Shown: piece after piece, positions 3,447 to 27,755 of the stretch | How the letters are laid out: every line of letters begins with the position of its first letter | How positions within the stretch are numbered: position 1 is the first letter of the stretch | The notes under the pieces: model-generated | What the model was told of the DNA's origin: nothing | Database searches by the model: none | The model's input: only the letters and a program-made list of their open reading frames with translations | Virus record (IMG/VR): IMGVR_UViG_3300036861_001052 | Coordinates: 74,415 to 138,414 of that record | DNA length: 64,000 nt | Strand: one strand, 5' to 3' | Origin: a virus | Program-made: the position numbers and the translations under genes

Positions 3447-3980
3447 ATGTACCAGAGCACGGGACTTGGTCGCGGCGGCGGAGGTGGTGGGCACGGCGGC
3501 GGCGGTCATGGCGGGGGAGGCCACGGCGGTGGGGGTCATGGTGGCGGAGGCGGTGCTCGCGCGGGCGGTGGAGGCGGAGCGCGTGTCAGCGGAGGCGGCG
3601 GAGCGCGTCACGGCGGCGGCGGCCATCACGGTGGTCACCACGGCGGACGCGGCCGCGGTCCCACGAACGTTTTCGTGACCGACGGCGGCTGGGGACCTGG
3701 ATGGGGCTGGGGGCCCGGCTATGCGGAGACCGTGTACGTCGACTCGTCGTGCGCTGTCGTCGACGACAGCGGCGTCTGTGTTTGTAAGTCTTTGAATCTC
3801 GACGGCAGCTGCGCGCGGCCCATCATCGGCTGGGTCGGCGGTCGCCCGGTCTACGGACTCGGCGCGGACGAAGAGAAGGCATCGGTCGCGCCCTGGATCG
3901 CCGGCGGGATCTTGCTCGCGCTTGCCGTCGGCGCGTACGCCCTCGATAAGAAGGGCCCAGCTCCGCTCCGTAGCTCGTAA
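3447..3980 (+). CDS. Gly/His-rich tail-anchored membrane protein
   Basis: GGGH repeats, Cys cluster, STGLG and VYGLG motifs, C-terminal TM followed by KK. Confidence 0.7.
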   Translation: MYQSTGLGRGGGGGGHGGGGHGGGGHGGGGHGGGGGARAGGGGGARVSGGGGARHGGGGHHGGHHGGRGRGPTNVFVTDGGWGPGWGWGPGYAETVYVDSSCAVVDDSGVCVCKSLNLDGSCARPIIGWVGGRPVYGLGADEEKASVAPWIAGGILLALAVGAYALDKKGPAPLRSS

Positions 3981-3989
3981 TCGCGGACC

Positions 3990-4241
3990 GTGCAGCTCAA
4001 GCGGTGCCGAGGAGTCTGCGGCGAAGAGTGGCCGATCGAGTCCTTCTCTCGCGATCCGGGTAACTCCGACGGTCGCCGGAACGAATGTAACGCTTGCCGG
4101 CAGGAGCGGCGGGCAGCGCTCGCTCTGGGCGCAGCGCGGAAACGGCCGTGGCAGCACAAATTCGAGCGGGGCTATGACTACACGACCGAGCGAGAGCGGC
4201 GGCGGGGCGAGGCTGCGGCGCGGCGGCGCATGATCGCATAG
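3990..4241 (+). CDS. Zn-finger protein of the type found N-terminal to HNH/EndoVII nucleases, without the nuclease domain
   Basis: KRCRGVCGEEWPIESFSRD...DGRRNECNAC pattern. Confidence 0.55.
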   Translation: MQLKRCRGVCGEEWPIESFSRDPGNSDGRRNECNACRQERRAALALGAARKRPWQHKFERGYDYTTERERRRGEAAARRRMIA

Positions 4242-4278
4242 GGGTTCTGGCCGGGAATTGCCCCGCCGGCGCCTCTAC

Positions 4279-4307
4279 TTGAGCTTCGGCCGGTGTCCCG
4301 GTAGAGT
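4279..4307 (+). promoter_or_regulatory. Sigma70-like promoter
   Basis: TTGAGC-17 nt-TAGAGT in the intergenic gap. Confidence 0.4.
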
Positions 4308-4426
4308 GAAGGCTGCAGGGCGCTCCCGACGCCGGCCTCGGGAAAGTTGTGCGCTCGCTCCTCCACCATCAACCGGCGACCTTCACACCAGGCTATCCTG
4401 GTGCTCTCGGTTGGTATGGCGAGCCG

Positions 4427-4969
4427 ATGGCGGGGACGCTCTCGAGAAATCCCCCGAACACGCTCGCGGGCTTTCAGGGGCACCCCGACACGCTTCGAGC
4501 GATGGTCCGCGCAGCGCACGGACCGCGGGGCGAGCAGAGCATCCTCGTCCGTAGCGTGACCGAGGAAGTGGTCGGGGACCTTCAGCCGAAGGACTACCTC
4601 GGTGAGATCTTGGCGATTCGCTACTGGGTGACCGAGCACATCCGGTACGTGAACGATTCTCTCCACGTCGAGATCGTGAAAGACCCGCAGCGAGTCATCG
4701 AAGAGATCCTCGCGCGCGGCCGCGCGGCGGAGGACTGCGACGGCATCGCTCTCATGATTGCCGTCATGTGCTTGCAGGTCGGACGCGTGGCGGAGTTCGT
4801 GGTGGTGGGCTTCGGCGAGCCGGGGCACTACAGCCACGTCTTCGTGAGAGTGAAGGAGCCACGGAGCGGCCAATGGATCGTGTGCGATCCGGTTGCGGGC
4901 TCCGACGAGCGCGGCATGCTCGACCGCGTGACGACGTTTTACACGAAGAGCCTAGACGAGGCGGCCTAA
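4427..4969 (+). CDS. Transglutaminase-like (papain-fold) cysteine protease/transamidase; candidate maturation protease
   Basis: IRYVND...EDCDGIALMIAVM...HYSHVFVRV...WIVCDP gives a Cys-His-Asp triad in transglutaminase-like order. ATG 4427 preferred over GTG 4349. Confidence 0.8.
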   Translation: MAGTLSRNPPNTLAGFQGHPDTLRAMVRAAHGPRGEQSILVRSVTEEVVGDLQPKDYLGEILAIRYWVTEHIRYVNDSLHVEIVKDPQRVIEEILARGRAAEDCDGIALMIAVMCLQVGRVAEFVVVGFGEPGHYSHVFVRVKEPRSGQWIVCDPVAGSDERGMLDRVTTFYTKSLDEAA

Positions 4970-5691
4970 TGTCGAGCAGGTTCCAGAGTCTCAGGCCTCC
5001 GTACCCGGTCTACGAGTCGCAACCGATCTTCGGCGGGGACTTGCCGACGATCGACGAGATCGGTCCGCCCGACGTCCGGGCTTCCGCCACGAACCCCTAC
5101 TACGACATGTATCGTGGTGCGCACGGTCGGAATTTCTCTGGCCTCGGAGTAACCAACATGATGAGTGCAGACCGCGGTCTCCAGGATTACCCGAACGAGC
5201 TAGATCTCCTGGCGGAGATGGACGACGTGCAAGGCAACGGCGTCTTCGATCCGCACGGCTCGCACGGAAACATCCATCCCGACGAGGGCGTCTTCGCCGA
5301 TCACGAAAACCTCCCGGGCTATCTCGTCCGGGACGAGTACTACGCCCCGAGCCAGGTCATCGACGGCACGACGGGCGAGCCCGTGATGTACGTGCCGGGC
5401 GGAGCCGTGGCGATCGATCAGTCGCAGCTCGACACCTACCGCGACCGGCAGCTCCTCTGGGAGATCCCGCCCGGGATGAGCGCTGAGCACCGAGAGGCGC
5501 CGCCGGACGGCGAGACGTGGATCCCACACGAGTACTCGTGGCCCATCTCGGGCATCGGCGAGGAGATTTCCCCGCCGGGGAGCGACACGGCGTCGCTTCC
5601 GGGGCAGAAGAGCAAGGTGCCGCTGATTGCGTCGTTCGCGATCATCGGCGTCGCCGTCGGAGTCTTCGTCGCAACACTGGTGAAGAAATGA
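4969..5691 (+). CDS. Tail-anchored membrane protein
   Basis: TAATG coupling; FSGLG and ISGIG motifs; C-terminal TM + KK. Confidence 0.75.
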   Translation: MSSRFQSLRPPYPVYESQPIFGGDLPTIDEIGPPDVRASATNPYYDMYRGAHGRNFSGLGVTNMMSADRGLQDYPNELDLLAEMDDVQGNGVFDPHGSHGNIHPDEGVFADHENLPGYLVRDEYYAPSQVIDGTTGEPVMYVPGGAVAIDQSQLDTYRDRQLLWEIPPGMSAEHREAPPDGETWIPHEYSWPISGIGEEISPPGSDTASLPGQKSKVPLIASFAIIGVAVGVFVATLVKK

Positions 5692-6098
5692 GCGGAGCCT
5701 ACCAAAGCATTCTGCCGGAGTTCGATGTGTTCAGGTCGCCGGGTCCCGTGAGGGAGCCTCCCGGAGGTCAGATGCTCGGCGGCGTAAAGCCCCATCGCGC
5801 CGCCGCCTTCATCCTGAATCCCGGCGTTGCCGCGATGCGGGGCCTCGGGCAAACCGAGACGCCTGGCGCTCCGCCCGCGCCGGTCATGCCGCCGGAGCCA
5901 AAGAAGCTTCCCGTGTGGGCCGCGGTCGGGATCTTGGGGCTCGTCGGATACCTCGGATACGAGATCGGGAGCGCGATGACGCCTTCCGGATCCAAGAAGA
6001 CGACGTGGGGTCTCATCGGGATCCCCGTGACGCTTTTCACGGGCCCCTTGGGCCTCGGCGTGATGGGGATCGTCTCCAATCACCAGAGGAGAAGCTGA
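5688..6098 (+). CDS. Membrane protein (2-3 TM)
   Basis: ATGA coupling; MRGLG motif before a Pro-rich linker and hydrophobic helices. Confidence 0.7.
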   Translation: MSGAYQSILPEFDVFRSPGPVREPPGGQMLGGVKPHRAAAFILNPGVAAMRGLGQTETPGAPPAPVMPPEPKKLPVWAAVGILGLVGYLGYEIGSAMTPSGSKKTTWGLIGIPVTLFTGPLGLGVMGIVSNHQRRS

Positions 6099-6101
6099 GC
6101 C

Positions 6102-6383
6102 ATGAGAGGCATTGGAGCGTACTCACTAACCACGGCGAGTCATCCAGATCCAACCGGAATGCGGTGCGGAGACGGGAGGACCGCTATCAAGGAGTCGAAC
6201 GGTAGCATCTGGTGCTACTCCGATGCCGAGCTCGCTGCGCTCAGGGCAGCTGGTGCTGGCGTTACGGTGCGCAACGCGACTCCATTCGAGCGGTTTACCC
6301 ATTCGCTCACGGAAGTTCCGTGGTGGGTCTATGCAGGCATTGGCGCTGGTGGACTCTGGTTCTTGTTGGGGAGGAAGCACTAA
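6102..6383 (+). CDS. Small tail-anchored membrane protein with lower-GC codon usage
   Basis: N-terminal MRGIG, Cys pair, TM + RKH. Confidence 0.7.
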   Translation: MRGIGAYSLTTASHPDPTGMRCGDGRTAIKESNGSIWCYSDAELAALRAAGAGVTVRNATPFERFTHSLTEVPWWVYAGIGAGGLWFLLGRKH

Positions 6384-6709
6384 TGGGCTGCGGTTGCTCG
6401 GCGCCTCTCGGTGACTCGATGAACACCTACCAGGGCCCTGTTCCGCCCGGCGTGCCGAATCCGTTCACGCCGATGCTGCACTCGTTTCCGACGCGCTACC
6501 ACGGCCCGATCTACACGCGCCCCATGAACCAATTCCCCTGGCGCGAGCGCCCGAACGACTTCGCGCTCGAAGAGGGCATGCAGGGACTCGGCGCGGACGA
6601 CGACAAGGCAATCCCGCCGGCGTGGAAGATGGCCGTCGCCGCGGGCCTCGTGGGCATCACGATCTGGGCCGTCGTCAAATGGGCGGACGCCCAGCCAAGG
6701 AGGGCGTGA
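6383..6709 (+). CDS. Small tail-anchored membrane protein
   Basis: TAATG coupling; starts MGCGC; MQGLG just before the TM. Confidence 0.7.
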   Translation: MGCGCSAPLGDSMNTYQGPVPPGVPNPFTPMLHSFPTRYHGPIYTRPMNQFPWRERPNDFALEEGMQGLGADDDKAIPPAWKMAVAAGLVGITIWAVVKWADAQPRRA

Positions 6710-7164
6710 TGTACAGGCGCGACGGTCAGCCGATGCCCGAGCACGAAGAGGGCGCCGCCTTCTTCAAGCCGATTGCGGGGCCCGAAGCGGAGACGGGTCA
6801 GATCTGGGGCGTCCAGAAGAATCTCCTCACGCACGGGTTCAATGTGCACGGTCTCGGCGTCCCGGCGATCGATCCCAACACGAGCATGATCTCCGACGAG
6901 GAGGCCGCGCTCCGGAGCGGAGCGGAGACGCTCCCCGAAGTGAGGATCGAGGGCCAGCCCATGGGCGGCGCAGAGTTCTACGAGAGCTCCTTCTGGAGAC
7001 TTCTCGCTGTCGCCGGCATGGCCGTCGGCGCCTACCACGGATACAAGCGGAACAATTCCGTGGGTTGGGGCATCGGCTGGGGACTTCTCGGCGGACTCGT
7101 TCCGATCATCGTGATCCCGATTGCACTCGCACAAGGGATCGGAAAACCCAAAGGCAGGTCGTGA
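6709..7164 (+). CDS. Membrane protein (2 TM)
   Basis: TGATG coupling; VHGLG motif; AYHGYKRNNSVGWGIGW hairpin. Confidence 0.7.
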   Translation: MYRRDGQPMPEHEEGAAFFKPIAGPEAETGQIWGVQKNLLTHGFNVHGLGVPAIDPNTSMISDEEAALRSGAETLPEVRIEGQPMGGAEFYESSFWRLLAVAGMAVGAYHGYKRNNSVGWGIGWGLLGGLVPIIVIPIALAQGIGKPKGRS

Positions 7165-8024
7165 TGGACGTCAATACTCGAGGCGGTCTTTTTGGTCCCG
7201 GCGGCTACGGCGGCGGGATCTTCGACGGATCCCAGATGGGCTTCGGAGGGCTCGGACAGTCCGAGCAGGCCGCGGCCGGCATCGGCCTCGGCGCGACGAC
7301 CGGCGCCTTTCAGTGGTGCAGCAAGACGAGCCCGTGCGCGACCGGCGATCCGAGGGTGAAGTCTCTTCAGACGGCGCTTAACCGCGTGCTCGCGGCGCAC
7401 GGCATGAAGCCGCTCGTCGTCGACGGGAAATTCGGCGCGGCGACGTGCGGCGCCATGGTGTGGCTCGCGGCCGTGCCGGTCGCCGAGTGGCAGAACGACC
7501 CCGTTCTCTCGTCGGCGCACGACTACATGATCGACGCGAGTGGCCACGCCGTGTGCCAGTCGTACACGGCTCCGACCCGGGTCGGATCCACGACGCCGGT
7601 CGACATCAACAAGGAGATCGGGATCCAGCTCCCGAGCGTGTCGGCGCCCTGGATGCAGCCGAATGGAGATCTGCCGGGCCTGCAGCAGGGGATCAATCAC
7701 GATCTCTCCGAGCACGGATTCGATCCGATCTCCGTGACGGGCATGCTCGACGCAGAGACCTGCGGAGCGATGCTCTACGCGAAGGAACACTGGGGGATGA
7801 GCGAGTACCTCCAGCGCTACGGCCAGAACTGCCAGGCGTTCACGGCGCCGCACCAGCACGCCGTGCCGGTAACGCCCGGGCCTGCGCCCACGCACGACGA
7901 GGAAACGCCGCACGCGGCGGTCGGCGCGAAGAAGAGCGGCGTCTCGACGGCGTGGGTTCTCGGCGGCCTTGCTGCCGCGGCGGGCGTCGCGGGTCTGGTC
8001 GCCATGAACAAGAAGAGGCGCTAG
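7164..8024 (+). CDS. Tail-anchored protein with two peptidoglycan-binding-like domains
   Basis: VKSLQTALN...LVVDGKFGAATCGAM and LQQGIN...ISVTGMLDAETCGAM resemble PG_binding_1; FGGLG and GIGLG motifs; TM + KKRR. Confidence 0.7.
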   Translation: MDVNTRGGLFGPGGYGGGIFDGSQMGFGGLGQSEQAAAGIGLGATTGAFQWCSKTSPCATGDPRVKSLQTALNRVLAAHGMKPLVVDGKFGAATCGAMVWLAAVPVAEWQNDPVLSSAHDYMIDASGHAVCQSYTAPTRVGSTTPVDINKEIGIQLPSVSAPWMQPNGDLPGLQQGINHDLSEHGFDPISVTGMLDAETCGAMLYAKEHWGMSEYLQRYGQNCQAFTAPHQHAVPVTPGPAPTHDEETPHAAVGAKKSGVSTAWVLGGLAAAAGVAGLVAMNKKRR

Positions 8025-8635
8025 TGTCGAACTTCGGTCCCATCGCGTACGAAGACTTCTCCCAGCTGAACGCTCGGTGGGGAGAGGCGCGGCCTGCCGT
8101 TGCCGGTCTCGGCGTCGTGTCGGGGCCGCACGACTACGTCGATCTCTCCTACCTGAACGCCCACTACCGGCCGATCCAGCCGGCGGGCGTCGGCATGGGA
8201 AACGGGATCCTCTCCTCGAACTCGCTCGGCATGCTGTCGGGCGGAGGGCTCGGCGAAGATCCGAGCTATCCCTGGCGGGAGTACAGCGCGGACACGAAGG
8301 CGCTCCAGCAAGCGACCAACGAGGCCCTCCAGGCGCACGGCTACGCCCCGATCACGGCCGACGGAAAGCTCGGGCCCGCGACGTGCGGCGCCATCCGCGC
8401 CATGTGCCAGTACGCCGGCGCGGGCTGCGAGGCTCCGGGGACCTGTCAGGACTTCGCGGCGCCTGTGAAGGCTGGCGGCGGCTCGCTCCTCTCGAAGTCG
8501 ACCGGGACGAAGACGACGACCGCGTCGCGCGCGAGCATGTTCGGGGGCGGCGGCACGAACTGGATGCTCATCGGCGGCGCGATCGCTGCGGTCGCGGTCG
8601 GCGGCGCCATCATCTACAAGGCGGCGAAGAAATAG
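8024..8635 (+). CDS. Tail-anchored protein with a peptidoglycan-binding-like domain
   Basis: TAGTG coupling; TKALQQATNEALQAHGY..ITADGKLGPATCGAI; VAGLG and GGGLG; TM + KAAKK. Confidence 0.7.
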   Translation: MSNFGPIAYEDFSQLNARWGEARPAVAGLGVVSGPHDYVDLSYLNAHYRPIQPAGVGMGNGILSSNSLGMLSGGGLGEDPSYPWREYSADTKALQQATNEALQAHGYAPITADGKLGPATCGAIRAMCQYAGAGCEAPGTCQDFAAPVKAGGGSLLSKSTGTKTTTASRASMFGGGGTNWMLIGGAIAAVAVGGAIIYKAAKK

Positions 8636-9007
8636 ATGCCGACTCCGATCGACGTCGTGCAGTCCCGGCTCGGTGTCCCGCGATCGGGACACTGGGATAG
8701 GACCACCGACGGGGCGATCCTCGCCTACCAGTCGAGCGGCAAGGGTCAGTACCCGATGCGGCCGACGGGGCATCCCGATCCGGCGACGCTCGCCAATCTC
8801 GGCTACTTCGATCCCAAAGAGATGCTCCCCGAGCGCTGGGCGAACTACCTCGGGGGCGGGGCTAAACCGGGGACGTTCGGGAGGGACGTCCGGACGGCGA
8901 TCGATCAGGTCCCGCGCTGGGCGTGGGGCACGGTTGCCGCGGCGTTTTCGGTGTTCGCGATCATGGCGTACCGGACCGATCGAAAGCGCGAGAAAGGCGG
9001 CCGCTAG
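8636..9007 (+). CDS. Small peptidoglycan-binding-like tail-anchored protein
   Basis: VQSRLGVPRSGHWDRTTDGAILAYQ...PTGHPDPATLANLG; TM + basic tail. Confidence 0.65.
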   Translation: MPTPIDVVQSRLGVPRSGHWDRTTDGAILAYQSSGKGQYPMRPTGHPDPATLANLGYFDPKEMLPERWANYLGGGAKPGTFGRDVRTAIDQVPRWAWGTVAAAFSVFAIMAYRTDRKREKGGR

Positions 9008-9888
9008 TGCTCGGAGATCTCGCCGACATGTACGACGAGCTCGCCGGAGCTCCGGGGATCCCGTGGGCGGGCCTCACGGCCGACGGCCACGGCATCGAGG
9101 AGAACGGCTACGACCCGACGTACATGGACTACATGCTCAAAGACGGAGCGGAGTTCTTCGGCGTCGTCGGAAGCCTCGGCCCGGACTTCGTAGCGAAGTA
9201 TCGGACGCTCCGTGAAGATGAAGGGCGCGCGAGCGTGACGCGCATCATGGCGATCATCGATCAGATGGGCACCGACGTCTGGCAGGCGGTGAAAGACGGC
9301 GACTGGGACGCCTTCGTGGCCTTGCCGCGAACGACGACCGTCGATGCGTTCGCGGCGCTTGCGGCCGCTGCCGCCAACGGCGCCTTCCTCCACTACGACG
9401 GCATCATGGAAGCGGCGATGCGGGCGAAGAAGCTCAAGCCCGCCGAGGTCGTCTCCCACGCGAACAACGTGACGAAGGTCTTTCAGACGTTCGTGGACCT
9501 CGACAAGAACGGTCACTTCGCCGACTTGAAGAAGAAGCCGCCGCCCGTGGCGGGTCTCGGCCTCGCGCCGGCTCTCATTGCGGCCATCGTCGCCATCGGC
9601 GTCGTGCTGCTCCTCGGGCTCTGCTATCTCATCTACGTCATAAAGCTCGCCGCCCCTGCGCAGCAGAAGGCGCTCGAGTGGTGCGACAAGGTTGCCAAGG
9701 AGGGATCCAAGGAAGACGCGATGGCGTGCGCAAATCTCGCCGCCAGCATGGAGCAAAAGGGAAACCCGCTCCTCGGTAACATCTTCGCCCAGGCGCTCAC
9801 TCCGATTTTCGTGGTGCTCGCCATCGGTGCGGCATTCTGGATCGCGCCGACGGTCATTCAGGGGATTCGCAAAACTCGAGCCGCGTGA
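9007..9888 (+). CDS. Membrane protein (2 TM)
   Basis: TAGTG coupling; VAGLG immediately before the first TM. Confidence 0.7.
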   Translation: MLGDLADMYDELAGAPGIPWAGLTADGHGIEENGYDPTYMDYMLKDGAEFFGVVGSLGPDFVAKYRTLREDEGRASVTRIMAIIDQMGTDVWQAVKDGDWDAFVALPRTTTVDAFAALAAAAANGAFLHYDGIMEAAMRAKKLKPAEVVSHANNVTKVFQTFVDLDKNGHFADLKKKPPPVAGLGLAPALIAAIVAIGVVLLLGLCYLIYVIKLAAPAQQKALEWCDKVAKEGSKEDAMACANLAASMEQKGNPLLGNIFAQALTPIFVVLAIGAAFWIAPTVIQGIRKTRAA

Positions 9889-10238: not shown

Positions 10239-10804
10239 TGACGGTCCGGGTCATAGAAACCAAGGACGTCGCTACGAAAACGTTCGAGACGTTTTACGAT
10301 CGGCCAAGCAAGAGGGAGATCCCGCTCGAGTTCGGGTGGCCGAAGGAGCTCCAGGAGGTCGGCGTCGGCAAAGCGGAGATGTACACCTCGAACAAGTGGA
10401 AAAAGAGCCGCTCGGACTTCGAGGACTACAAGCACGTCGCCGAGGGCCTTCGCACGGTGTACGCCGAGCCCGGCTTTCTGCGAGTTGGCGCGCACCCGGC
10501 GCGCATGATGCCGGTCTACGGACCGATGGCGAGCTTCGAGGAGCCGATGCCGAAGCACTTCGCGAGGCTCGGGCCGCTTCTCGGTGTGCAGGTCAGGCTC
10601 TACGACCGGGACGACAAGGGTGAGCTCTACGTGCCGGGCGGCGACGATCGGGTCTACGAGGTCGAGATTGCGCGCGCCTGGCTCGGCTCGGCCAGGCACC
10701 CAGGCACCAAAGAGACCTTCCTCTTCGTGTACACTCCGGATGGCGTCCACATGATCCTCACGGGAGACAAGCTCTCCATCGAAAAGGACGGCATTGCCGG
10801 GTGA
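10238..10804 (+). CDS. Soluble beta-rich hypothetical protein
   Basis: TGATG coupling; typical codon usage; no TM. Confidence 0.7.
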   Translation: MTVRVIETKDVATKTFETFYDRPSKREIPLEFGWPKELQEVGVGKAEMYTSNKWKKSRSDFEDYKHVAEGLRTVYAEPGFLRVGAHPARMMPVYGPMASFEEPMPKHFARLGPLLGVQVRLYDRDDKGELYVPGGDDRVYEVEIARAWLGSARHPGTKETFLFVYTPDGVHMILTGDKLSIEKDGIAG

Positions 10805-12729
10805 CGTATTCTCTCACGGCGTCTGGCCTTTACGTCCCGGAGAGACTCCGGGGCTTGGGCGTCACTCCGCCTCCGCGGATGCCGCTCCCGCCCGACGCTG
10901 GCACTTCGAATAATCCCGCCGACCAGGCGCGCGGCTTCATCCCGCCGGAGGAAGCCGCTGCGGCCCGCAATGCCTACCCGTCGGGGCAGATGCCGTGGGT
11001 ACCGACGACGCCGACCGAGGTCGGGCCGTGGGCGAAGGAGCAGGCGAAGCTCTTCGCCTCGAAACAGATCCAGGAGGGCATCGAGCGCGGTAAGCGGATC
11101 TTCGAAGACAAGCTCTCGGGCGCGACCCCGGTCACGGTCGAGCCGTTTCCTCCCATGAAAGAGGACGAGATCGAAGCGTGGGTGAAGTTTTTCGTCCTTG
11201 CCCACGGCTACCCTACGAACGCAGCCGACGGCGTCCGGTTTGCGCGAGAGTTCGTGCTCGCAAACTGCGATCAGATCGGGCTTCCACCGGAGTTCATTGC
11301 GGCGAGCGATCTGATTCAAAACTTCCCCGACACGCCCGAAGAGGCCGTGACCTGGGCCATTAACCTCGGCTCCTCGTTCCTCGCGTCGTTCGGCGTGCCG
11401 CTCGTGGACGTGTCGGACGCCTCGAGCTTCATCTCCGCGAGCGCGCGGGCGGCCGTTGCTCAGGTCGCTCCGGGCGTGCCGTTTGACTTGTTCGAGACGA
11501 CGTTCGATGCGCTCTCGGACGGGCGCGTGACCTCGGCAGAGGCGAAGGGCATCGTCATCGGCGCCGCGGGCTTCGTCGGCGCCGTGATTGGGCAAGCGTT
11601 TGGCTTGCCAGCTCCGCTCGGCGCCCTTCTCGGTCAGCTCATCGTCGGAGGCCTGTCCGAGGCATTCGGGTGGGGACCGGACGATTCGGAAAAGCTCAAG
11701 AGCGCGCAGGACGCCGCGGCCGCCGCGGCTGCGACAGCGCACTCGCAGTGCCAAGATCTCTCCATCGCGCTCTGGCTCGAGTACCAGCACTACTGGGATG
11801 CGATCGCAAAGACTCTCGATGCCACCATTCGCCAGAACCAGTCCTGGCTCACGCCAGAAGGCTCCTGCCTCCGAACGAACGGCATCCGCCTCTTCGGCTC
11901 GACGACGCTCGACATCATCCGTGACGGCGCTGGCATGCCCCTCATCACGAACCCCGCCGAAGTGAAGAAGGGCGCGCGGCCGAAGTACCGGACCTATCCT
12001 GTCAAGATGACGAGGTCGTGCGGCGATGCGCGCGGCTGCCCGTACCTCTCCATGCCGATGGAGAAAATGCTCAGTCGGGATAAGTGGCCGCTCGCTCCTG
12101 ACGATCTCCGCCGTGTGCCGTCGATCTCCGCCGGCTCGGCGGGATGCGACGCCACGGGCGCGCTCCTCTTCTGGGGAGCTCGCCGGTACGTTAATCCCAT
12201 GCATGTCTTTTACGCCATGCAAGGGAAAGCCAATCAGTGGGTCGAGCCCGACACGTACCGAGCGACCGAGCTCTCGAGCCGGAACGTCCGCCGCTGGGAA
12301 GAAATCGTGCACTCGGACTACGACTACCTCTCGTCGGTCGTCGGCTACGTCGGCACGATCAACTTCGGCACGGCCGTGAGCGAGTGTCCGGCGCCGGCGT
12401 GGGCGGCGTTCATGTTCAAGTCGCTGGAGCAAGCGGCGGCAGCGGTTGCGCTCGTGCAGCGGGATCTCGCGCGCACGGTCTCCGCGGCGACGACCGAGTA
12501 CGGAATCAAGTACCACATGGAGCAGGCGGCCCAGGTAAACTGGGAAGTCGCGACCACAACGCAAAAGCGCCAAGCCGCGCGCCAGGTTGCCGCGCAGGCA
12601 GCGGGTCTCCGGCACGCGGTCGTGGAAGCGAAGCGGCGCGGTCGCGAAAAGTCCGACCTCTTGAATTACGGCCTCCTCGCTGCGGGCGGCGCGGCCGTCT
12701 TCGGGCTAGCTCTCGGGAGCAAGCGATGA
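10801..12729 (+). CDS. Large membrane protein (642 aa)
   Basis: LRGLG near the N-terminus, internal hydrophobic hairpin, several Cys, C-terminal TM + KR. Confidence 0.75.
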   Translation: MTYSLTASGLYVPERLRGLGVTPPPRMPLPPDAGTSNNPADQARGFIPPEEAAAARNAYPSGQMPWVPTTPTEVGPWAKEQAKLFASKQIQEGIERGKRIFEDKLSGATPVTVEPFPPMKEDEIEAWVKFFVLAHGYPTNAADGVRFAREFVLANCDQIGLPPEFIAASDLIQNFPDTPEEAVTWAINLGSSFLASFGVPLVDVSDASSFISASARAAVAQVAPGVPFDLFETTFDALSDGRVTSAEAKGIVIGAAGFVGAVIGQAFGLPAPLGALLGQLIVGGLSEAFGWGPDDSEKLKSAQDAAAAAAATAHSQCQDLSIALWLEYQHYWDAIAKTLDATIRQNQSWLTPEGSCLRTNGIRLFGSTTLDIIRDGAGMPLITNPAEVKKGARPKYRTYPVKMTRSCGDARGCPYLSMPMEKMLSRDKWPLAPDDLRRVPSISAGSAGCDATGALLFWGARRYVNPMHVFYAMQGKANQWVEPDTYRATELSSRNVRRWEEIVHSDYDYLSSVVGYVGTINFGTAVSECPAPAWAAFMFKSLEQAAAAVALVQRDLARTVSAATTEYGIKYHMEQAAQVNWEVATTTQKRQAARQVAAQAAGLRHAVVEAKRRGREKSDLLNYGLLAAGGAAVFGLALGSKR

Positions 12730-16858: not shown

Positions 16859-16874
16859 GCTGTAGCGCTTAACA

Positions 16875-19726: not shown

Positions 19727-20632
19727 TTGACCCTCCGATCACATTTGACGCCGCGGCAGGTCAAGGGGCTCGGCCTCGGAGCCCCGTCGCCGCCGGCGGA
19801 GCCCGTACGCGTGCTCGATCCGTGGCGAGGCGATCCGCCTCCTCCTCAGCCCTACGAGGGCGAGGGGATCAGCCACGGCTGCGACGCTTCCCGGGTCCAG
19901 CTCGCCGGAGGGGCGCTGAACACCCTCCTCGTCCATCCCGAGGTGACGCCCTTCGAGCAGCTCTACCGGCGCCTGCCCGAGGAGGGGATGTTTCTCGACT
20001 CGGTCGGCCCGGAGAATCCGTTCACGTTCGAGCTCGGGGCGTTCCGCGTGCCGGACACGTTCACGCTGCTCTTGTTCGATTTGAGGCCAGACATCTATCG
20101 CTTCAGCGGCGTGGATCCGGGAGACACGATCCCGGTCGAGGCGCGGCGCTTCAGCTCGGTTCTCGGCTTTCAGATCACGGTCGACCAGCGCCAGCCCGCC
20201 AATCTCCTCTACCAGCTCGATCCGGCGCCGATTCAGACGTTTCCCGAGGCCTTCACGAATCCGATCGGCGCTCCCGGCGAGCTCCCGCCCGCCATCGCGG
20301 CGGCAATCGGTTTCCAGAACGGATCGCGCTTCAACCTCTCTCAGGCGACGAGCGTCGCGACGGCTTCGGGCGCCGGAGACCAGCTCCAGCCACAGAGGCC
20401 GACCCGGTACGGGCCCTTGTCCGTGCCGTTTACGATGTACATCCGGCCCGGGCAGACGTTTCAAGTCCGCTGCGTGATCTTCAATCCGGTGCCGAGCCCG
20501 ATTGCGTTCATCGAGTACGACATCGCTGGCATGCTCATGCCGGACACGTGGGTGACGACGATGACCGAGTGCATGAAGCCGCTCTCGAACGCTTCGCACG
20601 GTCCAGGCTCTCTCGGGGGAGGTCCACGGTGA
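19727..20632 (+). CDS. Third beta-rich structural protein (minor capsid or vertex candidate)
   Basis: AAGGAG SD then TTG at 19727; VKGLGLG near the N-terminus; strand-rich C-terminal half. Confidence 0.55.
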   Translation: MTLRSHLTPRQVKGLGLGAPSPPAEPVRVLDPWRGDPPPPQPYEGEGISHGCDASRVQLAGGALNTLLVHPEVTPFEQLYRRLPEEGMFLDSVGPENPFTFELGAFRVPDTFTLLLFDLRPDIYRFSGVDPGDTIPVEARRFSSVLGFQITVDQRQPANLLYQLDPAPIQTFPEAFTNPIGAPGELPPAIAAAIGFQNGSRFNLSQATSVATASGAGDQLQPQRPTRYGPLSVPFTMYIRPGQTFQVRCVIFNPVPSPIAFIEYDIAGMLMPDTWVTTMTECMKPLSNASHGPGSLGGGPR

Positions 20633-21544: not shown

Positions 21545-21919
21545 ATGTATACGGGCGTTGGACAAGACTCTGGCATGGTGTTTCTTCCTGGGAGCATCAC
21601 TCCGCGCCCGACGGCGCCGGCCCCTTCCCAGCCGCCGCGCCTGATCCTTAAGCTCAAGCCGGACGGCGGCACGTGCGACTTCGCCGAGCAGTGCGCCGGT
21701 CACATTTGCCGGAACGGCCTCTGCCGCTCGGGCGTGATACTCAAGCAGCCATCGCGTCCCCCGGCCGAGTCGACACCAGCGCCCGTCCCGTCGCTGGTCG
21801 TCAGCGAAGGCGAGCCCACTACCGAGCCCGGAGCTCCGAAGTCATCGAAGCTCCCGCTCTACATTGCGGCGGGCGGCGTTGCCGTGCTCGGCATCGCCTG
21901 GCTCGTCATGAGAAAGTAG
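21545..21919 (+). CDS. Tail-anchored protein with a small Cys-knot-like module
   Basis: Starts MYTGVG; CDFAEQCAGHICRNGLC; TM + RK. Confidence 0.7.
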   Translation: MYTGVGQDSGMVFLPGSITPRPTAPAPSQPPRLILKLKPDGGTCDFAEQCAGHICRNGLCRSGVILKQPSRPPAESTPAPVPSLVVSEGEPTTEPGAPKSSKLPLYIAAGGVAVLGIAWLVMRK

Positions 21920-21930: not shown

Positions 21931-22758
21931 ATGTTCGTAGGACAAGGCATGGGCCGGCGCGCACAAGGCGGTCTCGGTCTCTATCAGCCGACGCCTACCG
22001 GCATCAAAGTGACGGCGCTTCCGACGTGCGCATTTCCCGCGGAGAAGGCGGAAGCAGCGAGCAAGTGTCAGACGATGAGTCTTCACGGGCTCGGTCAGAC
22101 GATGACGCGGGTCACGGGGCCGATGACGGGCAGGCTCGCCGGCTACTCGCCCTGCGACATCGTGAACTACCCCGTCTGCCCCGAGCCGAAGTGCATCGAC
22201 GAGCAGACGGTCACCACGATCCTGAAGTGCGCCAACGGCCTACCGGTAGAGGGCGTCGACTGTAACACGCCGAGCACCGCTCTCTATCTCTACTCGCTGT
22301 CGCTTCTGCCCTATTGCGGCAAGCCGAGCTTTTTGGCGCCGCCGCCCTCGTGTCTCTCGAAAGACCAGCAAGCCCTCATCGGGTATTGCGACGCGCATCC
22401 CGACTTCAAGGGCCCGAACAAGTCGTGGAACAACATCTGCTGGGTCAACACGCACGACCCCGTGTACTGGGCGAAGCTTCGAGCGGTGAGGCCGTGCCCG
22501 GTGGCCGCGCCGGCCGCTCCACCTCCGGTGAGGCCCCCGCCGGTCTTGAAGCCTCCGCCCGCGGCGCCGCCGCCGGTTCGTCCTCCTCCATCGGCTCCGC
22601 CGCCCGTCACGGCGCCGCCGTCGGACATGGTCCCGCCGGAAGACATTCCGGACGAGCCGGAGCATCGAGAGTCCGCCATGATGGGGCTCTGGGGGATCCT
22701 CGCGCTCGTGGCCGTGGGAGGCGGGGGATACTACCTCTACAGGCGCTACAAGAGATGA
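21931..22758 (+). CDS. Cys-rich, Pro-stalked tail-anchored protein
   Basis: QGMG, GGLG and LHGLG motifs; many Cys; PPPV repeats; TM + RRYKR. Confidence 0.75.
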   Translation: MFVGQGMGRRAQGGLGLYQPTPTGIKVTALPTCAFPAEKAEAASKCQTMSLHGLGQTMTRVTGPMTGRLAGYSPCDIVNYPVCPEPKCIDEQTVTTILKCANGLPVEGVDCNTPSTALYLYSLSLLPYCGKPSFLAPPPSCLSKDQQALIGYCDAHPDFKGPNKSWNNICWVNTHDPVYWAKLRAVRPCPVAAPAAPPPVRPPPVLKPPPAAPPPVRPPPSAPPPVTAPPSDMVPPEDIPDEPEHRESAMMGLWGILALVAVGGGGYYLYRRYKR

Positions 22759-22952
22759 CCATGAACCTCGTCGCCATCGCCGGAGTGCCCTTCGGGGAGA
22801 GCGTGACGCTGCCCCCGGGCTCGGGCCCCTCACAGCCCTACGTGGCGACGACAGAAGACAAGAAGGCGATGTGGATGGCGCTAGCGGCGCTCGGCGTCGG
22901 CGCAGTCGTGGGCTACGTCTTTCTCGGTGACATGGTGCGGAGGGGCGCGTGA
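22755..22952 (+). CDS. Small tail-anchored protein
   Basis: ATGA coupling; TM + RR. Confidence 0.6.
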   Translation: MTMNLVAIAGVPFGESVTLPPGSGPSQPYVATTEDKKAMWMALAALGVGAVVGYVFLGDMVRRGA

Positions 22953-23173
22953 GAGATCCCGTCCGCACAGCCGCATCGGCTGCCGAGGTCCTCGGGCCCG
23001 CGATGGACGATGTGGGAGGCCCGGTCGGGCTCGTCGGGCGGGCCATGGGGCTCGGAGCCGACGAGATCGACGCCGGCATTCCCGGCTGGGGCTGGTTTGG
23101 CGTCGGCGTCGTAGCCGGCGGGATAGCCATGTACTTTTTGCGTGACCGGCTCCGCGCTTTCGCCGCGGACTGA
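22949..23173 (+). CDS. Small tail-anchored protein
   Basis: AMGLG before the TM; basic tail. Confidence 0.65.
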   Translation: MRDPVRTAASAAEVLGPAMDDVGGPVGLVGRAMGLGADEIDAGIPGWGWFGVGVVAGGIAMYFLRDRLRAFAAD

Positions 23174-23207: not shown

Positions 23208-24170
23208 ATGAACTCACTCGGCGCCTACTTCGGAAGCACGCGAATCGTTCAAGGGGCAGGTGGGCTCGGCGACGACTACCTCCAGGCCTATGCCGACGGC
23301 GTCGTCGGCGGGAGCGCCCCGAATGCGGAGATGCCGGGTCCGATCACGGCGTACCGCGACGGAAGCCTCGGCCGGATGTCGCACCAGTACGGCGGAGGCG
23401 ACTCGGGCGAGCTAGCCGCTTGGGCTGACGGCGTCGTTGGTGGGAACGCCCCCGACGCGGTCCCGGGCGAGCTCTTCGCCTATCACGACGGAAGCCTCGG
23501 TGCCGAATCGAACCCCGCGACGATCGGCGACGACATCTCGTCCTATCACGACGGCGTCCTCGGCGACCGCAAGAACTTCGTTGTCCCTGGCTTCGGACCG
23601 CTCCAGTCCTTTCACGACGGAAGCCTCGGCGCGTACGCGGCTGCGATCGGAGCGGCGGCGGAAAACGTCCTCGATCTCGGCGACGCCAATGTCTTGAAGG
23701 AACTCAAGGTGGCGATGAGCTTCATCGCTCCCGAGCAGACGCTCACGATGGACGGCCAGAAGGTGTACACGCCCGACTGGTACACGAACGGGATCTGGGA
23801 TCCTCAGGCCTCGCTTCTCTGGCAGTACATCGTCAGTAAGACGAGCGCCTTCAAGGGCAAGAGCGTCTCGGTCGACATCGGCGCGCAGACCTACCCGAAC
23901 GCGACCGGCATCGGCTTCATGGTGGCGGCTCTAGCCGCGCCGCAGTCCGGGACCTACGGCCCCGACTACGTGAAGAAGAACCTCCCCGCGCTCTACGCCT
24001 GGTTTACGGCCGGCGGAGGCACAGTGCTCGCTCCGTACCTGTCCCTCACGGACAAGACGAAGGGCGCGCGCGGCACGCCGAGCTCGGAGATGAAGATGAG
24101 CACCGTCGCGCTCTACGGCCTCGGAGCCGTGGCGCTCTTCGGCGTCGCACTCGTCTTTTGGAAGAAGTGA
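23208..24170 (+). CDS. Tail-anchored protein with six aromatic-x-DG(V/S)(V/L)G repeats
   Basis: YADGVVG, YRDGSLG, WADGVVG, YHDGSLG, YHDGVLG, FHDGSLG; TM + KK. Confidence 0.75.
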   Translation: MNSLGAYFGSTRIVQGAGGLGDDYLQAYADGVVGGSAPNAEMPGPITAYRDGSLGRMSHQYGGGDSGELAAWADGVVGGNAPDAVPGELFAYHDGSLGAESNPATIGDDISSYHDGVLGDRKNFVVPGFGPLQSFHDGSLGAYAAAIGAAAENVLDLGDANVLKELKVAMSFIAPEQTLTMDGQKVYTPDWYTNGIWDPQASLLWQYIVSKTSAFKGKSVSVDIGAQTYPNATGIGFMVAALAAPQSGTYGPDYVKKNLPALYAWFTAGGGTVLAPYLSLTDKTKGARGTPSSEMKMSTVALYGLGAVALFGVALVFWKK

Positions 24171-24420: not shown

Positions 24421-24936
24421 ATGATGAGCGGACTAGGAGCAATGCGGCAAGAGAGCCCGGACGTGGCGCGGCTCAGGCACGCGCTCACGGCATGGGCGGC
24501 GAGCCCGAACGACCGCGCGGCGATCAACGGACTCTACGGCGCCGCGTGGATCTGGACGGCGAAAGTCAGGCCGCGGTTTACGGCGCTCGACAATGCGCTC
24601 GCTTCCGCTCTCGCCCAGTGGGGTAAGAGCCCGAGCGACGTCTCGAGCCAGCGCCTGGTGAGCGCGGCGGCCGCGCGGTGGATGGCGGGCGTGCACGCGC
24701 TCGGTGAATACTTTTCGGGCACTGGCGAATACTTCGCGGCTCAGGGCATGGGAGAGTACTTCTCTGGAACGGGCGAGTACTTCTCGGGTGCGGACGGGCT
24801 CGGAGCGGACATCGCCATGGTCTGCTCCGAAGAGTGCATGAAGTACGTCAAGGCCGACAAGAAGCGCCTCATGCTCATGACGGGATCCATCGCGCTCGGC
24901 CTCGGGCTCTTCGCGGGCATGGTCGTCTTTCGGTGA
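24421..24936 (+). CDS. Tail-anchored protein with four GEYF repeats
   Basis: Starts MMSGLG; ALGEYFSGTGEYFAAQGMGEYFSGTGEYFSGADGLG; C-terminal TM. Confidence 0.75.
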   Translation: MMSGLGAMRQESPDVARLRHALTAWAASPNDRAAINGLYGAAWIWTAKVRPRFTALDNALASALAQWGKSPSDVSSQRLVSAAAARWMAGVHALGEYFSGTGEYFAAQGMGEYFSGTGEYFSGADGLGADIAMVCSEECMKYVKADKKRLMLMTGSIALGLGLFAGMVVFR

Positions 24937-24957: not shown

Positions 24958-25578
24958 TTGAAAGACATCTTCGCAACTTTCGGTCGTAAGGTTTCCCGGA
25001 TCCCCTGGGGGGCCGTTGCGGGCGTTGTCGTCGAGCAGCTCCATGCGCAGGGCGGCGTCGCGGGGCAGGTTCTCGCGCAGCTCCAGGAGTGGGCGGGTCA
25101 TCTCGCCGCGAACGCCGTCCGTGAGTGGCCCGGAACGATCGCGAGTCACGCTCCCTGCGCCTGCCCGAACGTAGCTTCCGGCACACCGAAGAAGTGCCAC
25201 GCCTCGGCCGTCGTCGTCTGCGACATCTGCAATCGCAAATGCTGCCTCGCGCACGCTCGGATCGATTACCTAGCCGGCGCCATCTGCGAGATCTGCATCG
25301 GCGAAGCCAAGGCGCGGGCACGGGCGGCGGGACCAAAAGCTCCGGGTCAGGCGGCTCCGAAAAAGGACGTCGACCGGGCGTTCAGGATCTTGGATCTCGG
25401 TCGCACGGCGACCTGGGAGGAGATCAAGAAGCGCCACCGCGAGCTCGTCTTCAAGCACAACGCCGACCGGCCGCAGACGGACAAGATGCGAGCCCAGAAC
25501 ACGGAGCGCCTGAAGAAGGTGAACTGGGCGCTCGAGGTCCTACGGAAGTTTCATGAGGACAAGAAGGAGGCCGCGTAG
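24958..25578 (+). CDS. Zn-finger plus C-terminal J-like domain protein (HPD replaced by NAD)
   Basis: CDIC..CC..H..CEIC; AFRILDLGRTATWEEIKKRHRELVFKHNADR...VNWALEVL. Confidence 0.7.
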   Translation: MKDIFATFGRKVSRIPWGAVAGVVVEQLHAQGGVAGQVLAQLQEWAGHLAANAVREWPGTIASHAPCACPNVASGTPKKCHASAVVVCDICNRKCCLAHARIDYLAGAICEICIGEAKARARAAGPKAPGQAAPKKDVDRAFRILDLGRTATWEEIKKRHRELVFKHNADRPQTDKMRAQNTERLKKVNWALEVLRKFHEDKKEAA

Positions 25579-26386: not shown

Positions 26387-26670
26387 TGGGCAAGCGCGGC
26401 CCCGTCTTCTTTCAGATCCCCGTCGAGCTCAGGTTCGTGGTGACGGTGCAGCTCCCGGCCTTGCCGGAGTCGGGGCAGTACATGTCTCGGCCGTACGGTC
26501 TTTCGCCGGCCGAGGGGAAGGAACTGCGGGACGAGGCAGAGGCGATTGCGTGGGAGTTTTTGGAGCGGAAGATCGATGTGGGCGGCGGAGAAGCCATTGC
26601 GGCTCACGTGGAGGAATGGGAGCTCACTCGAGGCGGTCGCTCTGGCGTAAAAAGTCGAAGGGGCAGATAA
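26383..26670 (+). CDS. Hypothetical protein
   Basis: Overlapping start; fills the gap between the paralogs. Confidence 0.55.
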   Translation: MMGKRGPVFFQIPVELRFVVTVQLPALPESGQYMSRPYGLSPAEGKELRDEAEAIAWEFLERKIDVGGGEAIAAHVEEWELTRGGRSGVKSRRGR

Positions 26671-26672
26671 CG

Positions 26673-26906
26673 ATGTACCGAGCCGTCGGCGCTGGACCCG
26701 GAGACGTGACGACCTACCGCGTGGATCTCCCGCTTCCGTGGGGCAGGGACACGGAGGTGACTCTGCCCATGCAGGCGCTCGTCGACGACGCGTACGCCGC
26801 CATGGAGCCTAACCTCACGGCCGCCATCAACAAGGGAGCGATCGTCATCGCTGCGTCCGTGGCCCTCGCCGTAGGCCTCGCAGCGATGTGGATCAAGAAA
26901 GGATGA
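26673..26906 (+). CDS. Tail-anchored protein (paralog of 26000..26386)
   Basis: MYRAVGAGPGDVTTYRVDLPLPWG...; TM + KKG. Confidence 0.7.
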   Translation: MYRAVGAGPGDVTTYRVDLPLPWGRDTEVTLPMQALVDDAYAAMEPNLTAAINKGAIVIAASVALAVGLAAMWIKKG

Positions 26907-26907
26907 C

Positions 26908-27147
26908 GTGGCTTCTCTCTGGCGCTTCGTCGTCGACATCTACGAGCCCGGGACGAGCACGGCGTATCCGGTGCTCCGCCACGTCTTTTTTGGCCTCGAC
27001 GAAGAGGAAGCCTACGGCACCTTCGAGGCGCACATGACGACGGACGAGTTTTTGCGCGGGTGCGTGGAAAAGGGCCGCTGGAACGGCCTCGACTGTATTG
27101 CCAAGGCGCAGTGGCTTGCTCCGGGAGAGCAAATCCCCGAAGATTAG
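26908..27147 (+). CDS. Hypothetical protein
   Basis: AAAGGA SD; compact ORF. Confidence 0.6.
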   Translation: MASLWRFVVDIYEPGTSTAYPVLRHVFFGLDEEEAYGTFEAHMTTDEFLRGCVEKGRWNGLDCIAKAQWLAPGEQIPED

Positions 27148-27156
27148 GAGACCCCG

Positions 27157-27465
27157 ATGTCCTACTGGAACGTTCCGGACCAAGACTACCATGAGCTCCC
27201 CGTGGCGACGCCGTTCTGGCAGTCGGCGCCGGTGCCGGGCTGGGGCAAAAACCCGCTTCGCGCCGGTCCCCGGCGGGTCGGCATCGGCGGCGGGATCTGG
27301 GAAGAGGATGCGTTTCTCCCTCACTACATGTCGATCGGCGAAGATCCGGCGGCGAGCTACCGCGAGACGAGCTACGGCGTCGTGGCGCTGTCTGGCGCGG
27401 GCGGGATCATGCTCGGGATCTTGTTCGGCTACGCCTGGTGGGGGATGAAGAAACGGGCGGCGTAG
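27157..27465 (+). CDS. Tail-anchored protein
   Basis: RVGIG and MSIG motifs; TM + KKR. Confidence 0.7.
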   Translation: MSYWNVPDQDYHELPVATPFWQSAPVPGWGKNPLRAGPRRVGIGGGIWEEDAFLPHYMSIGEDPAASYRETSYGVVALSGAGGIMLGILFGYAWWGMKKRAA

Positions 27466-27755
27466 TGAACGGCTACGGATACGTCTCGTATCCGACGAGC
27501 ACGGGACAAGTCGAGTCTCGGGTCGCCGTCGTCACGTGCCCCGAGTGCTCCTTTCTCAAGAACGGCGACTGCGTCGTCTGCATCGACGGCGAGGATCATC
27601 CAGCCTGCAATGGATGCTCGGACGGTCAGATCGTCTGGTACCGGCGTCCGCTCTTCGTCTCGGTAGCAACGGCAATCGTCGTGTCGATCATCGCGGGCAT
27701 TACCGTGCATCAGATCGAGAAGCATTCCTCGGTGCTTCGAAGGCTAAGGTCATGA
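27465..27755 (+). CDS. Cys-rich tail-anchored protein
   Basis: TAGTG coupling; three CxxC motifs; TM. Confidence 0.65.

Follow-up and report, generated by a model that had tools for sequence, protein, structure and literature searches.

The stretch of DNA analysed here, called the window throughout, is the final 64 kb of a 138,414-bp virus record from IMG/VR (IMGVR_UViG_3300036861_001052, positions 74,415 to 138,414) with direct terminal repeats and ~66% G+C. Its left part contains a block of genes (window 3400-27760; 39 predicted proteins, 6937 amino acids) in whose products the short motif G-[LMIV]-G recurs. The motif very probably functions as a short linear signal that some common factor reads, and the signal is common to late, mostly tail-anchored particle proteins. 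The best single mechanism, to which we would give somewhat less than an even chance, is cleavage at the signal by an enzyme with a transglutaminase fold whose gene stands at the head of the block; the cuts would take off leaders and detach domains from their membrane anchors.

The virus is a member of a large uncultured group of bacterial viruses of roughly 95-180 kb. Five related viral contigs, three of them of 130-140 kb, have a syntenic block with 55-85% identity and, with 13 further records, make up 18 related records in all; in a large protein collection the capsid candidate of the block has 613 clusters and the enzyme 360, many of them on 100-180 kb contigs. No nucleotide-level match of the block was found among 50,697 phage records, a PHROGs search with ten soluble or conserved block proteins returned 0 families, and a Pfam or PHROGs family is lacking for most block proteins. 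A literature search, mostly at title and abstract level, found no description of the virus group, of the motif, or of a maturation enzyme with a transglutaminase fold in phages. Genes were predicted with a codon-usage model trained on the long open reading frames (ORFs) of the genome, and their frames were compared with orthologues. Proteins are named w plus start position (w6383 is the protein of gene 6383..6709), transmembrane (TM) helices were assigned by hydropathy, which is crude, and tail anchors by a strict hydropathy threshold. The genes of the enzyme, of the carriers and of the capsid candidates described below are on the + strand.

Enrichment and conservation of the motif

Relative to within-protein shuffles, the tripeptide GLG is strongly over-represented in the block (27 observed, 6.2 expected), as is G[LIVM]G (47 observed, 18.8 expected); the corresponding numbers for GLG are 7 and 14.9 in the genome from 1 to 74 kb, and 3 and 4.5 in the window from 32 to 64 kb. 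An earlier note, made from the sequence alone, had called the motif rarer in the right half of the window, as these last figures bear out, and all 20 pentapeptides that it quoted are present in the genes it named. With TM segments masked, and all tripeptides seen at least 5 times ranked, GLG tops the list in the block (23 versus 5.26 expected, Poisson P 1e-8), with EYF second (7 versus 0.35), and is depleted in the remaining genome (10 versus 18.65). Permutations of the same composition are rarer in the non-TM parts of the block (GLG 23, GGL 9, LGG 6; and GMG 6, GGM 0, MGG 1), and shuffles within local blocks of 10, 15 or 30 residues give GLG means of 5.6-6.6 with a maximum of 17, such that 23 is reached in 0 of 1000. 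The enrichment persists with TM segments masked, against the permutations and in the local shuffles, and glycine content and TM helices are therefore not the explanation.

The motif had been given in the earlier note as Phi-x-G-(L/I/V/M)-G, Phi being hydrophobic. Its core stands and its prefix does so in part: the position two before the first Gly is hydrophobic at 20 of 42 sites, at 30 if Ala is counted, and is strictly Met, Ile or Leu at 8. Since the upstream hydrophobic residue is missing from many sites, the firm core is G-[LMIV]-G; the Phi-x prefix is a tendency and not a rule, strongest at the best-conserved single sites. Hydrophobic-x often stands ahead of the core, and a small or acidic residue often after it.

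At aligned positions the motif is retained in 89 of 136 orthologue cells, compared with 25.6% for arbitrary tripeptides in the same proteins under the same scoring, and on this difference the alignments indicate that the motif is under (purifying) selection. G-L-G is identical in every orthologue of w5688, w6383, w8024, w14402 (amino acid 637), w22949 and w23208, in flanks that are 40-50% identical and contain insertions and deletions. At least one site is present in 54 of 62 orthologues in motif-carrying families, versus 8 of 49 in families without the motif. Some results speak against conservation: the most distant relative, G003, lacks both sites of w4969, and several secondary sites (w8024 amino acids 55, 57 and 75, w7161 and w6709) are not retained. 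Of the 13 further related records, 11 show GLG enrichment (P<0.05) at distances of up to 10 kb from the capsid gene, the exceptions being L035 and L038. Conservation in related IMG/VR genomes, on which the earlier note had made its idea depend, is borne out by these counts and by 40 of 43 clusters of the w6383 family.

This family is the most informative about layout. The window copy, w6383 (6383-6709), is a tail-anchored protein with a conserved core of ~55 residues, MQGLG at amino acid 68 and hypervariable sequence past amino acid 70. Among its 43 homologue clusters a central G-[LIV]-G is present in 40, and in 27 aligned sequences G68 and G70 do not vary and L69 is conserved to at least 90%. 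The leaders vary in length and sequence (MA-, MQ-, MGCGCxx-, MSCAPCMA-) and end in G-[LI]-G directly before the conserved core; the window copy has P-L-G at this N-terminal site, ahead of the conserved SLNTY core, where most relatives have G-[LI]-G. In 40 of 43 clusters the core closes with [ML]-x-G-L-G, what follows it ranges from a bare TM helix to an added domain, and some members have tandem copies of the motif. Such a layout, with variable leaders and the motif at both ends of the core, is expected of processing sites at domain borders. Many family members (6383-6400; P0241-P0266) start M-G-C-G-C or M-[SA]-C-A-P-C ahead of the first G-L-G, and this Cys-rich leader may be a place of acylation or metal binding.

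The transglutaminase-fold enzyme and its relatives

The transglutaminase-like cysteine enzyme (4427-4969) is 180 amino acids long, in a frame open from 4349, and has no evident TM helix or signal peptide. It scores 22.6 bits against Pfam PF01841 (Transglut_core), whose gathering cut-off is 23, and many close homologues have a precomputed PF01841 match; homologue P0001, also of 180 amino acids, is 99% identical. All 44 aligned sequences share D103-C104-D105, H137 and D154, and Cys104, His137 and Asp154 (numbered on the 180-residue form) are the catalytic candidates. An AF2 (AlphaFold2) model built with 44 homologues has a mean predicted local distance difference test score (pLDDT) of 90.5 and a predicted template modelling score (pTM) of 0.88. 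Foldseek matches it to 3kd4 (7.8e-5), 3isr (8.7e-5), LapG (4u65_E, 4.5e-4) and 4fgq (9.8e-3), with further matches to PNGase, Rad4, N-acetyltransferases, PeiP/PeiW, the transglutaminase 4xz7 and TgpA. The match probability is 1.00 for 3kd4, 3isr, LapG, PNGase and TgpA, the core fold of a Cys-bearing helix packed on a beta-sheet is present in the model, and the top matches are putative proteases and LapG. By its model the enzyme belongs to the transglutaminase-like/papain-like cysteine superfamily fold with the residue order Cys-His-Asp.

The earlier note had put a transglutaminase-fold enzyme of papain rather than adenain order at the head of the block, and it was right on both counts: the fold and the invariant C-H-D residues agree with it, and Peptidase C5 (PF00770) and C48 (PF02902) gave no six-frame match at E <= 1. 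Nor was there a six-frame match to PF04586 (Peptidase_S78), the only prohead-protease family sought in that way, and Pfam scans of 202 proteins contained no peptidase families other than those of the cell-wall enzymes (SLT, Amidase_2 and VanY types), which lie outside the block. The Pfam scan of the enzyme itself gave just PF01841 and PF13369, with no match to DUF920 at E <= 0.05, and its profile had a chance-level match only (E 0.42) among PDB sequences.

The gene belongs to the core of the group, with copies in 5 of 5 near and 13 of 13 further related records. As the enzyme is present in 18 of 18 related records, its co-occurrence with the motif, which the earlier note had suggested as a check, has no power to discriminate. 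In this clade the enzyme is not itself a carrier, the motif being present at one of 97 N-termini. A complex prediction combining the enzyme alignment with residues 48-82 of the w6383 family, run without controls, gave a score of 0.00 and a mark of 0.32, and speaks neither for nor against an interaction.

Two features of enzyme homologues were observed in passing. P0077, of 324 amino acids, has an intein-like insert exactly at the catalytic Cys, between the GD and CDD of the catalytic motif, with the host flanks intact. In nine of 13 distant relatives (G006 and G009-G016) the six-frame enzyme match contains an in-match stop, TGA in eight of them (two in G015) and TAA in G006; these stops could come from the edges of the match or from another genetic code.

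Among the 50,697 phage records the only relative of the enzyme is gp34 of SSIP-1 (Salisaeta icosahedral phage 1), with 27% identity over 135 amino acids (E 2e-8) and an annotation as structural protein in its record. A review describes this phage as tailless, with an internal membrane, PRD1-adenovirus-type architecture and two capsid protein types (PMC6356626). The two enzymes are related in sequence and gp34 retains the C-H-D triad; it differs in its length of 304 amino acids and in having its own C-terminal TM anchor, with G-M-G in the linker ahead of that helix. The SSIP-1 genome is 44 kb and is not enriched for the motif, and an all-against-all BLAST of SSIP-1 ORFs with the genome of the present virus found nothing in common except the enzyme.

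Carriers of the motif and the particle

The 42 non-TM G[LIVM]G sites are distributed over 20 of the 39 block proteins, and these carriers are mostly unrelated to one another in sequence; the paralogous gene pairs in the block are w7161/w8024 and w26000/w26673. By the strict threshold 15 of the 20 carriers are tail-anchored, as are 23 of the 39 block proteins overall, and a C-terminal TM helix with a basic tail is present in about 23-27 of the 39. The first 60 residues of the proteins contain 25 of the sites, another 5 precede a TM helix by at most 30 residues, and the 12 that remain are internal, with 8 among the C-terminal repeats of one protein.

Tail-anchored carriers encoded at the left of the block include w3447, w4969, w5688, w6709, w7161 and w8024. 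The Gly/His-rich w3447 (3447-3980), with a homologue in G001 (E 4e-23), has STGLG at amino acid 6 and VYGLG at amino acid 137, seven residues ahead of its TM helix. In w4969 (4969-5691) FSGLG at amino acid 58 and ISGIG at amino acid 195 lie around a central domain, ahead of a TM helix at 214-240, and each is retained in 4 of 5 orthologues. MRGLG is at amino acid 52 of w5688 (5688-6098), with G-L-G identical in 4 of 4 orthologues at a flank identity of 0.42. The small protein w6102 (6102-6383) starts MRGIG and has a C-terminal hydrophobic segment, and the tail-anchored w21545 (21545-21919) starts MYTGVG; no orthologue of either was found in the five relatives. VHGLG at amino acid 48 of w6709 (6709-7164) is retained in 1 of 3 orthologues, which suggests turnover of the site in these sequences. 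Weak peptidoglycan-binding repeats are present in w7161 (7161-8024; FGGLG at amino acid 30, GIGLG at 40-44) and a weak peptidoglycan-binding domain in its paralogue w8024 (8024-8635), which has VAGLG at amino acid 28, identical in 5 of 5 orthologues, and GGGLG at amino acid 75.

Further to the right, the two-TM protein w9007 (9007-9888) has VAGLG at amino acid 183, bordering on its first TM helix, with G-[LM]-G retained in 4 of 4 orthologues, and the 642-residue membrane protein w10801 (10801-12729) has LRGLG at amino acid 18, retained in 3 of 4. The tail-anchored w12872 (12872-13921) starts M-T-Y-S-G-L-G, a start column common to its orthologues, with the site in 2 of 3. VKGLG is at amino acid 14 of w19727 (19727-20632), the third conserved beta-rich protein of the block, where two of four orthologues have G-L-G and one has S-L-G. 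In the tail-anchored, Cys/Pro-rich w21931 (21931-22758), GGLG at amino acid 14 and LHGLG at amino acid 53 are both present in 3 of 3 orthologues with a flank identity of 0.22-0.25, and AMGLG at amino acid 34 of the small membrane protein w22949 (22949-23173) is likewise retained in 3 of 3. The remaining three are tail-anchored: w23208 (23208-24170), which besides GGGLG at amino acid 19 has six [YFW]-x-D-G-[SV]-[LV]-G repeats; w24421 (24421-24936), which starts MMSGLG and has four G-x-G-E-Y-F repeats and DGLG at amino acid 126; and w27157 (27157-27465), with RVGIG at amino acid 42 retained in 3 of 3 orthologues and insertions and deletions after the site. The w23208 repeats (window 23208-23700) form a second, related Gly-x-Leu-Gly pattern outside the G-x-G count.

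The largest carrier listed, w14402 (14402-16858; 818 amino acids), consists of a protamine-like region (residues 1-495), hydrophobic segments, MRGLG at amino acid 637 together with six G-[MLV]-G repeats, in three cases G-M-G-E-Y-F; amino acid 637 and most repeats are retained in 4 of 4 orthologues. Its N-terminal 495 residues (14402-15886) are 40% Arg+Lys and 3% Asp+Glu, and the protein is conserved in four relatives with 28-70% identity. Its composition makes it a candidate for a core protein that condenses DNA, joined to a membrane and repeat domain. Repeats of the form G-[MLT]-G-E-Y-F occur in two otherwise unrelated proteins (16388-16690; 24700-24800), and several G-x-G-E-Y-F repeats have [FY]-[RQ]-Q-A-A-A directly ahead.

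The best candidate for the capsid protein, with a jelly roll by its model, is w17034 (17034-18614), the most conserved protein of the block. It is modelled as a beta-sandwich (pLDDT 78, pTM 0.78) whose best structural match is the capsid protein of SPV1 (6oj0_T; Z 6.8, root-mean-square deviation 3.2, 129 residues aligned), followed by generic jelly rolls; SPV1 also leads a Foldseek search with the model (E 5e-3), in which nothing reached E <= 1e-3. A match at Z 6.8 may indicate a jelly roll and not kinship, as values below 8 may reflect a common arrangement only. A protein search against the phage records gave no match. The N-terminus, MAKLTNVRERVHQPFYDTLIRT[SA]G[LIM]G, is near-invariant, with G24 in 110 of 110 and G26 in 81 of 110 homologues, and a variable stretch follows; the window copy has TSGLG here (nucleotide 17880). 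Its gene is split (17034-17904): exon 1 (ending ...MAKLTNVRERVH) stops at ~17075, the frame resumes at 17847 (QPFYDT...), and the ~770-nucleotide insert holds a LAGLIDADG-type ORF (17203-17781). The gene is uninterrupted in 4 of 4 relatives examined, and Rfam found no intron family at E <= 0.01 in 16700-18000. A second conserved beta-rich protein, w18726 (18726-19718), is without the motif and is a possible second capsid protein; an ESM Atlas search with it gave unnamed viral clusters only and no structure model.

The earlier note had proposed a tailless, membrane-containing bacterial virus, and a virus of this kind is plausible but weakly supported. It is suggested by the missing tailed-phage families (Pfam gives none of the terminase, portal, HK97 capsid and tail families among the 202 proteins, at E <= 1e-3 to 0.05), the jelly-roll model, the proteins with TM tails, the Arg+Lys-rich protein and the SSIP-1 relative, although the jelly-roll match itself is weak. 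Matches to 'tail fiber' in PHROGs, among the best 25 rows of each list, are probably from collagen-repeat proteins, as judged by equal member counts. For a packaging ATPase of the FtsK/HerA type, the general Pfam scans contained no such family and BLAST gave no match to SSIP-1 gp40; Walker A motifs are present in DnaB, an AAA protein and two others, all encoded far from the block.

Several other genes may be noted. The collagen-repeat family (27757-32043; genome 34836-42641), with G-P-T and G-A-T triplets and Pfam Collagen matches up to E 9e-37, probably forms fibres, and several members have the N-terminus MSRYGSV.I.S in common. A DnaJ-domain protein is encoded within the block (24958-25578), GroES (Cpn10, E 1e-27) was assigned from sequence to 33657-33956, and an AAA ATPase (E 4e-31) was assigned to 53392-54939 via its Walker A motif; this chaperone set may serve assembly. 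The largest ORF in the window encodes 1279 amino acids (41435-45274, - strand). The 62-protein batch that includes it had no polymerase-like Pfam family listed and one match to an unnamed PHROG (E 1.5e-157), for which the output does not name the matching protein.

Proposed maturation, rival explanations and known systems

In the mechanism we prefer, the soluble C-H-D enzyme would be a maturation protease that reads the signal where flexible leaders and linkers of the viral membrane proteins lie on the cytoplasmic side, facing the capsid. The cut would probably fall after the middle residue and before the second Gly, as in the cleavage of IVGL|G by the adenovirus protease. It would strip short N-terminal leaders, release domains from C-terminal membrane anchors, and shorten two further proteins, the protamine-like core protein in its C-terminal part and the capsid protein in its N-terminal arm. 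We infer the cutting, its position and the enzyme as cutter from the bracketing of cores by sites, the variable leaders that end at the motif, the fold and triad of the enzyme, the lack of another protease candidate, the virion location of the SSIP-1 relative, and the precedents of LapG and the adenovirus protease.

A number of observations weigh against this mechanism. A boundary between conserved and variable sequence is clear at the sites of some families and not general. The upstream hydrophobic position is filled at just 20 of the 42 sites, and the presence of an enzyme that every relative has cannot be correlated with the motif. Many w6383-family members have a leader of two residues (MAGLG...), which is hard to reconcile with a removable propeptide and suits a binding motif better, and the w17034 site sits in an almost invariant N-terminus of 26 residues, atypical of a discarded peptide. 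The late genes of SSIP-1 have no significant enrichment (G[LIVM]G 16 versus 10.6 expected, GLG 4 versus 4.0). Finally, the fold matches include PeiP/PeiW, cell-wall isopeptidases of archaeal phages with a transglutaminase fold, so that the enzyme could serve entry or lysis.

Some of these points fit a docking or assembly signal that is not cleaved, where a common viral partner (capsid, scaffold or membrane organiser) would bind the motif and recruit unrelated proteins while the enzyme has another job. We regard this as a serious rival, though rather unlikely, and hold in the same doubt its corollary that repeats such as G-M-G-E-Y-F would give multivalent binding. The sites at extreme N-termini with leaders as short as MA-, the tandem repeats of w14402, w24421 and w23208, the site embedded in the invariant arm of the capsid candidate, and the presence in SSIP-1 of the enzyme without enrichment of the motif are all in its favour, as is the turnover of sites in linkers with at least one copy retained per protein, which is typical of linear motifs. 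Docking accounts less well for the paired sites that bracket the conserved cores of w6383 and w4969, for leaders of very unequal length that stop at the same G-L-G, and for a protease-fold enzyme with an intact triad that heads the same block in 18 of 18 records. Targeting and cutting can also go together: the capsid-targeting leaders of phage T4 are bound and then cut off. A processing site read by a host protease or by an unrecognised viral protein is unlikely in our estimation; the enzyme would then be a virion-borne wall peptidase for entry or lysis, or a Gln-Lys cross-linker. Fold matches to the pseudomurein endoisopeptidases PeiP/PeiW, 4xz7 and TgpA point that way, and gp34 of SSIP-1 is membrane-anchored and structural as virion-borne lytic enzymes of membrane phages can be, the lytic proteins of PRD1 being the comparison. 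A protease might also be hidden among the many block proteins without a Pfam or PHROGs family, and the conserved Gln ahead of several repeats (F-[QR]-Q-A-A-A-G-x-G) is what a Gln-directed enzyme might want. Most sites, however, are without Gln, wall enzymes of the SLT, Amidase_2 and VanY types are already encoded elsewhere in the genome, and the window enzyme lacks a wall-binding domain, a signal peptide and a TM helix and is nearest in structure to putative proteases and LapG, not to wall enzymes.

A transpeptidase is a far less probable alternative. In it the enzyme would cut at hydrophobic-x-G-L|G, hold the upstream piece as a Cys104 thioester and pass it to the new N-terminal Gly that such a cut leaves on another protein, or to Lys; at the same low probability, a single motif would act as donor and as acceptor, joining dozens of membrane, core and capsid proteins in a covalent network, a sortase-like chainmail made with a transglutaminase fold. 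This would explain why M-A leaders are kept, why sites stand at both ends of domains, and the tandem repeats. An artefact of composition, paralogy or gene calling is practically excluded. The block is Gly-rich, it has the two paralogous gene pairs, and 8 of the 42 sites are repeats in one protein; against this, the local-block shuffles and the GGL and LGG permutations exclude composition, the carriers are mostly unrelated, their frames are confirmed by orthologues from up to five genomes, and conservation is far above background.

Should the signal be cut, a bacterial virus with a jelly roll and a membrane would here have a maturation-protease system, of which the titles and abstracts that made up most of the literature searched gave no case. 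To our knowledge, proteolytic ripening of particles is known so far from adenovirus, large eukaryotic DNA viruses and tailed phages. The system would combine an unrelated enzyme fold with a site code convergent on that of adenovirus, alongside a protamine-like core protein, and would bear on the age of proteolytic maturation and of DNA-condensing core proteins in this structural lineage. It would also provide a simple sequence rule to predict mature virion proteins across a widespread uncharacterised virus group, and a small soluble motif-specific cysteine protease or ligase would be of practical interest. Virion maturation by a site-specific viral protease is known; the enzyme fold, the host range and the substrate set would be what is unusual here.

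The prohead proteases of tailed phages resemble the proposed system in that a single protease with a short site trims many head proteins of their leaders. T4 gp21 cleaves at L/I-x-E, and gp245 of SPN3US is reportedly the prohead protease of a giant phage. They differ in being serine proteases of the herpesvirus-assemblin type in tailed phages with the HK97 fold. C-terminal sorting systems (LPXTG/sortase, PEP-CTERM/exosortase and GlyGly-CTERM/rhombosortase) share with some carriers (w3447, w4969, w6383, w13921, w24421) the arrangement of motif, TM helix and basic tail at the C-terminus. However, just 5 of the 42 window sites are within 30 residues of a TM helix, whereas 25 are N-terminal, and the carriers have no signal peptides. 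Sorting of the sortase or exosortase type was rejected on these grounds, and the general Pfam scans contained no sortase or exosortase family.

LapG is the closest named precedent for the enzyme. This C-H-D transglutaminase-like protease cuts LapA at a short site of small residues, A108|A109, and so frees it from its anchor (PMC3032545). The window enzyme shares with LapG and the BTLCP family its fold class and C-H-D triad, a similarity that is real but modest. LapG is periplasmic, is regulated through LapD and cyclic di-GMP, and acts on a single adhesin with an Ala-Ala site, whereas the window enzyme has neither signal peptide nor DUF920 match and has ~20 proposed substrates with G-L-G.

For the sites, the closest parallel is the adenovirus protease (AVP, or adenain; MEROPS C5), with (M/I/L)XGG|X and (M/I/L)XGX|G as cleavage sites and IVGL|G as the site in pVI (PMC4246237). 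Its sites are in the precursors of capsid, cement, scaffold and Arg-rich core proteins. The earlier note had seen exact matches to this consensus, and many window sites do have the (M/I/L)XGX|G form, although Met, Ile or Leu is at the P4-equivalent position in just 8 of 42. The window enzyme differs from AVP in its C-H-D order and its fold, and the His-Glu/Asp-Cys order and C5/C48 fold of the clan CE maturation proteases are not those found here; the host is bacterial, the carriers are mostly tail-anchored, and cutting is a proposal. What the two systems have in common is a short Gly-based code spread over many unrelated virion proteins, with IVGL|G fitting the window motif exactly, an Arg-rich core-type protein that carries sites, and a jelly-roll capsid fold, here as modelled.

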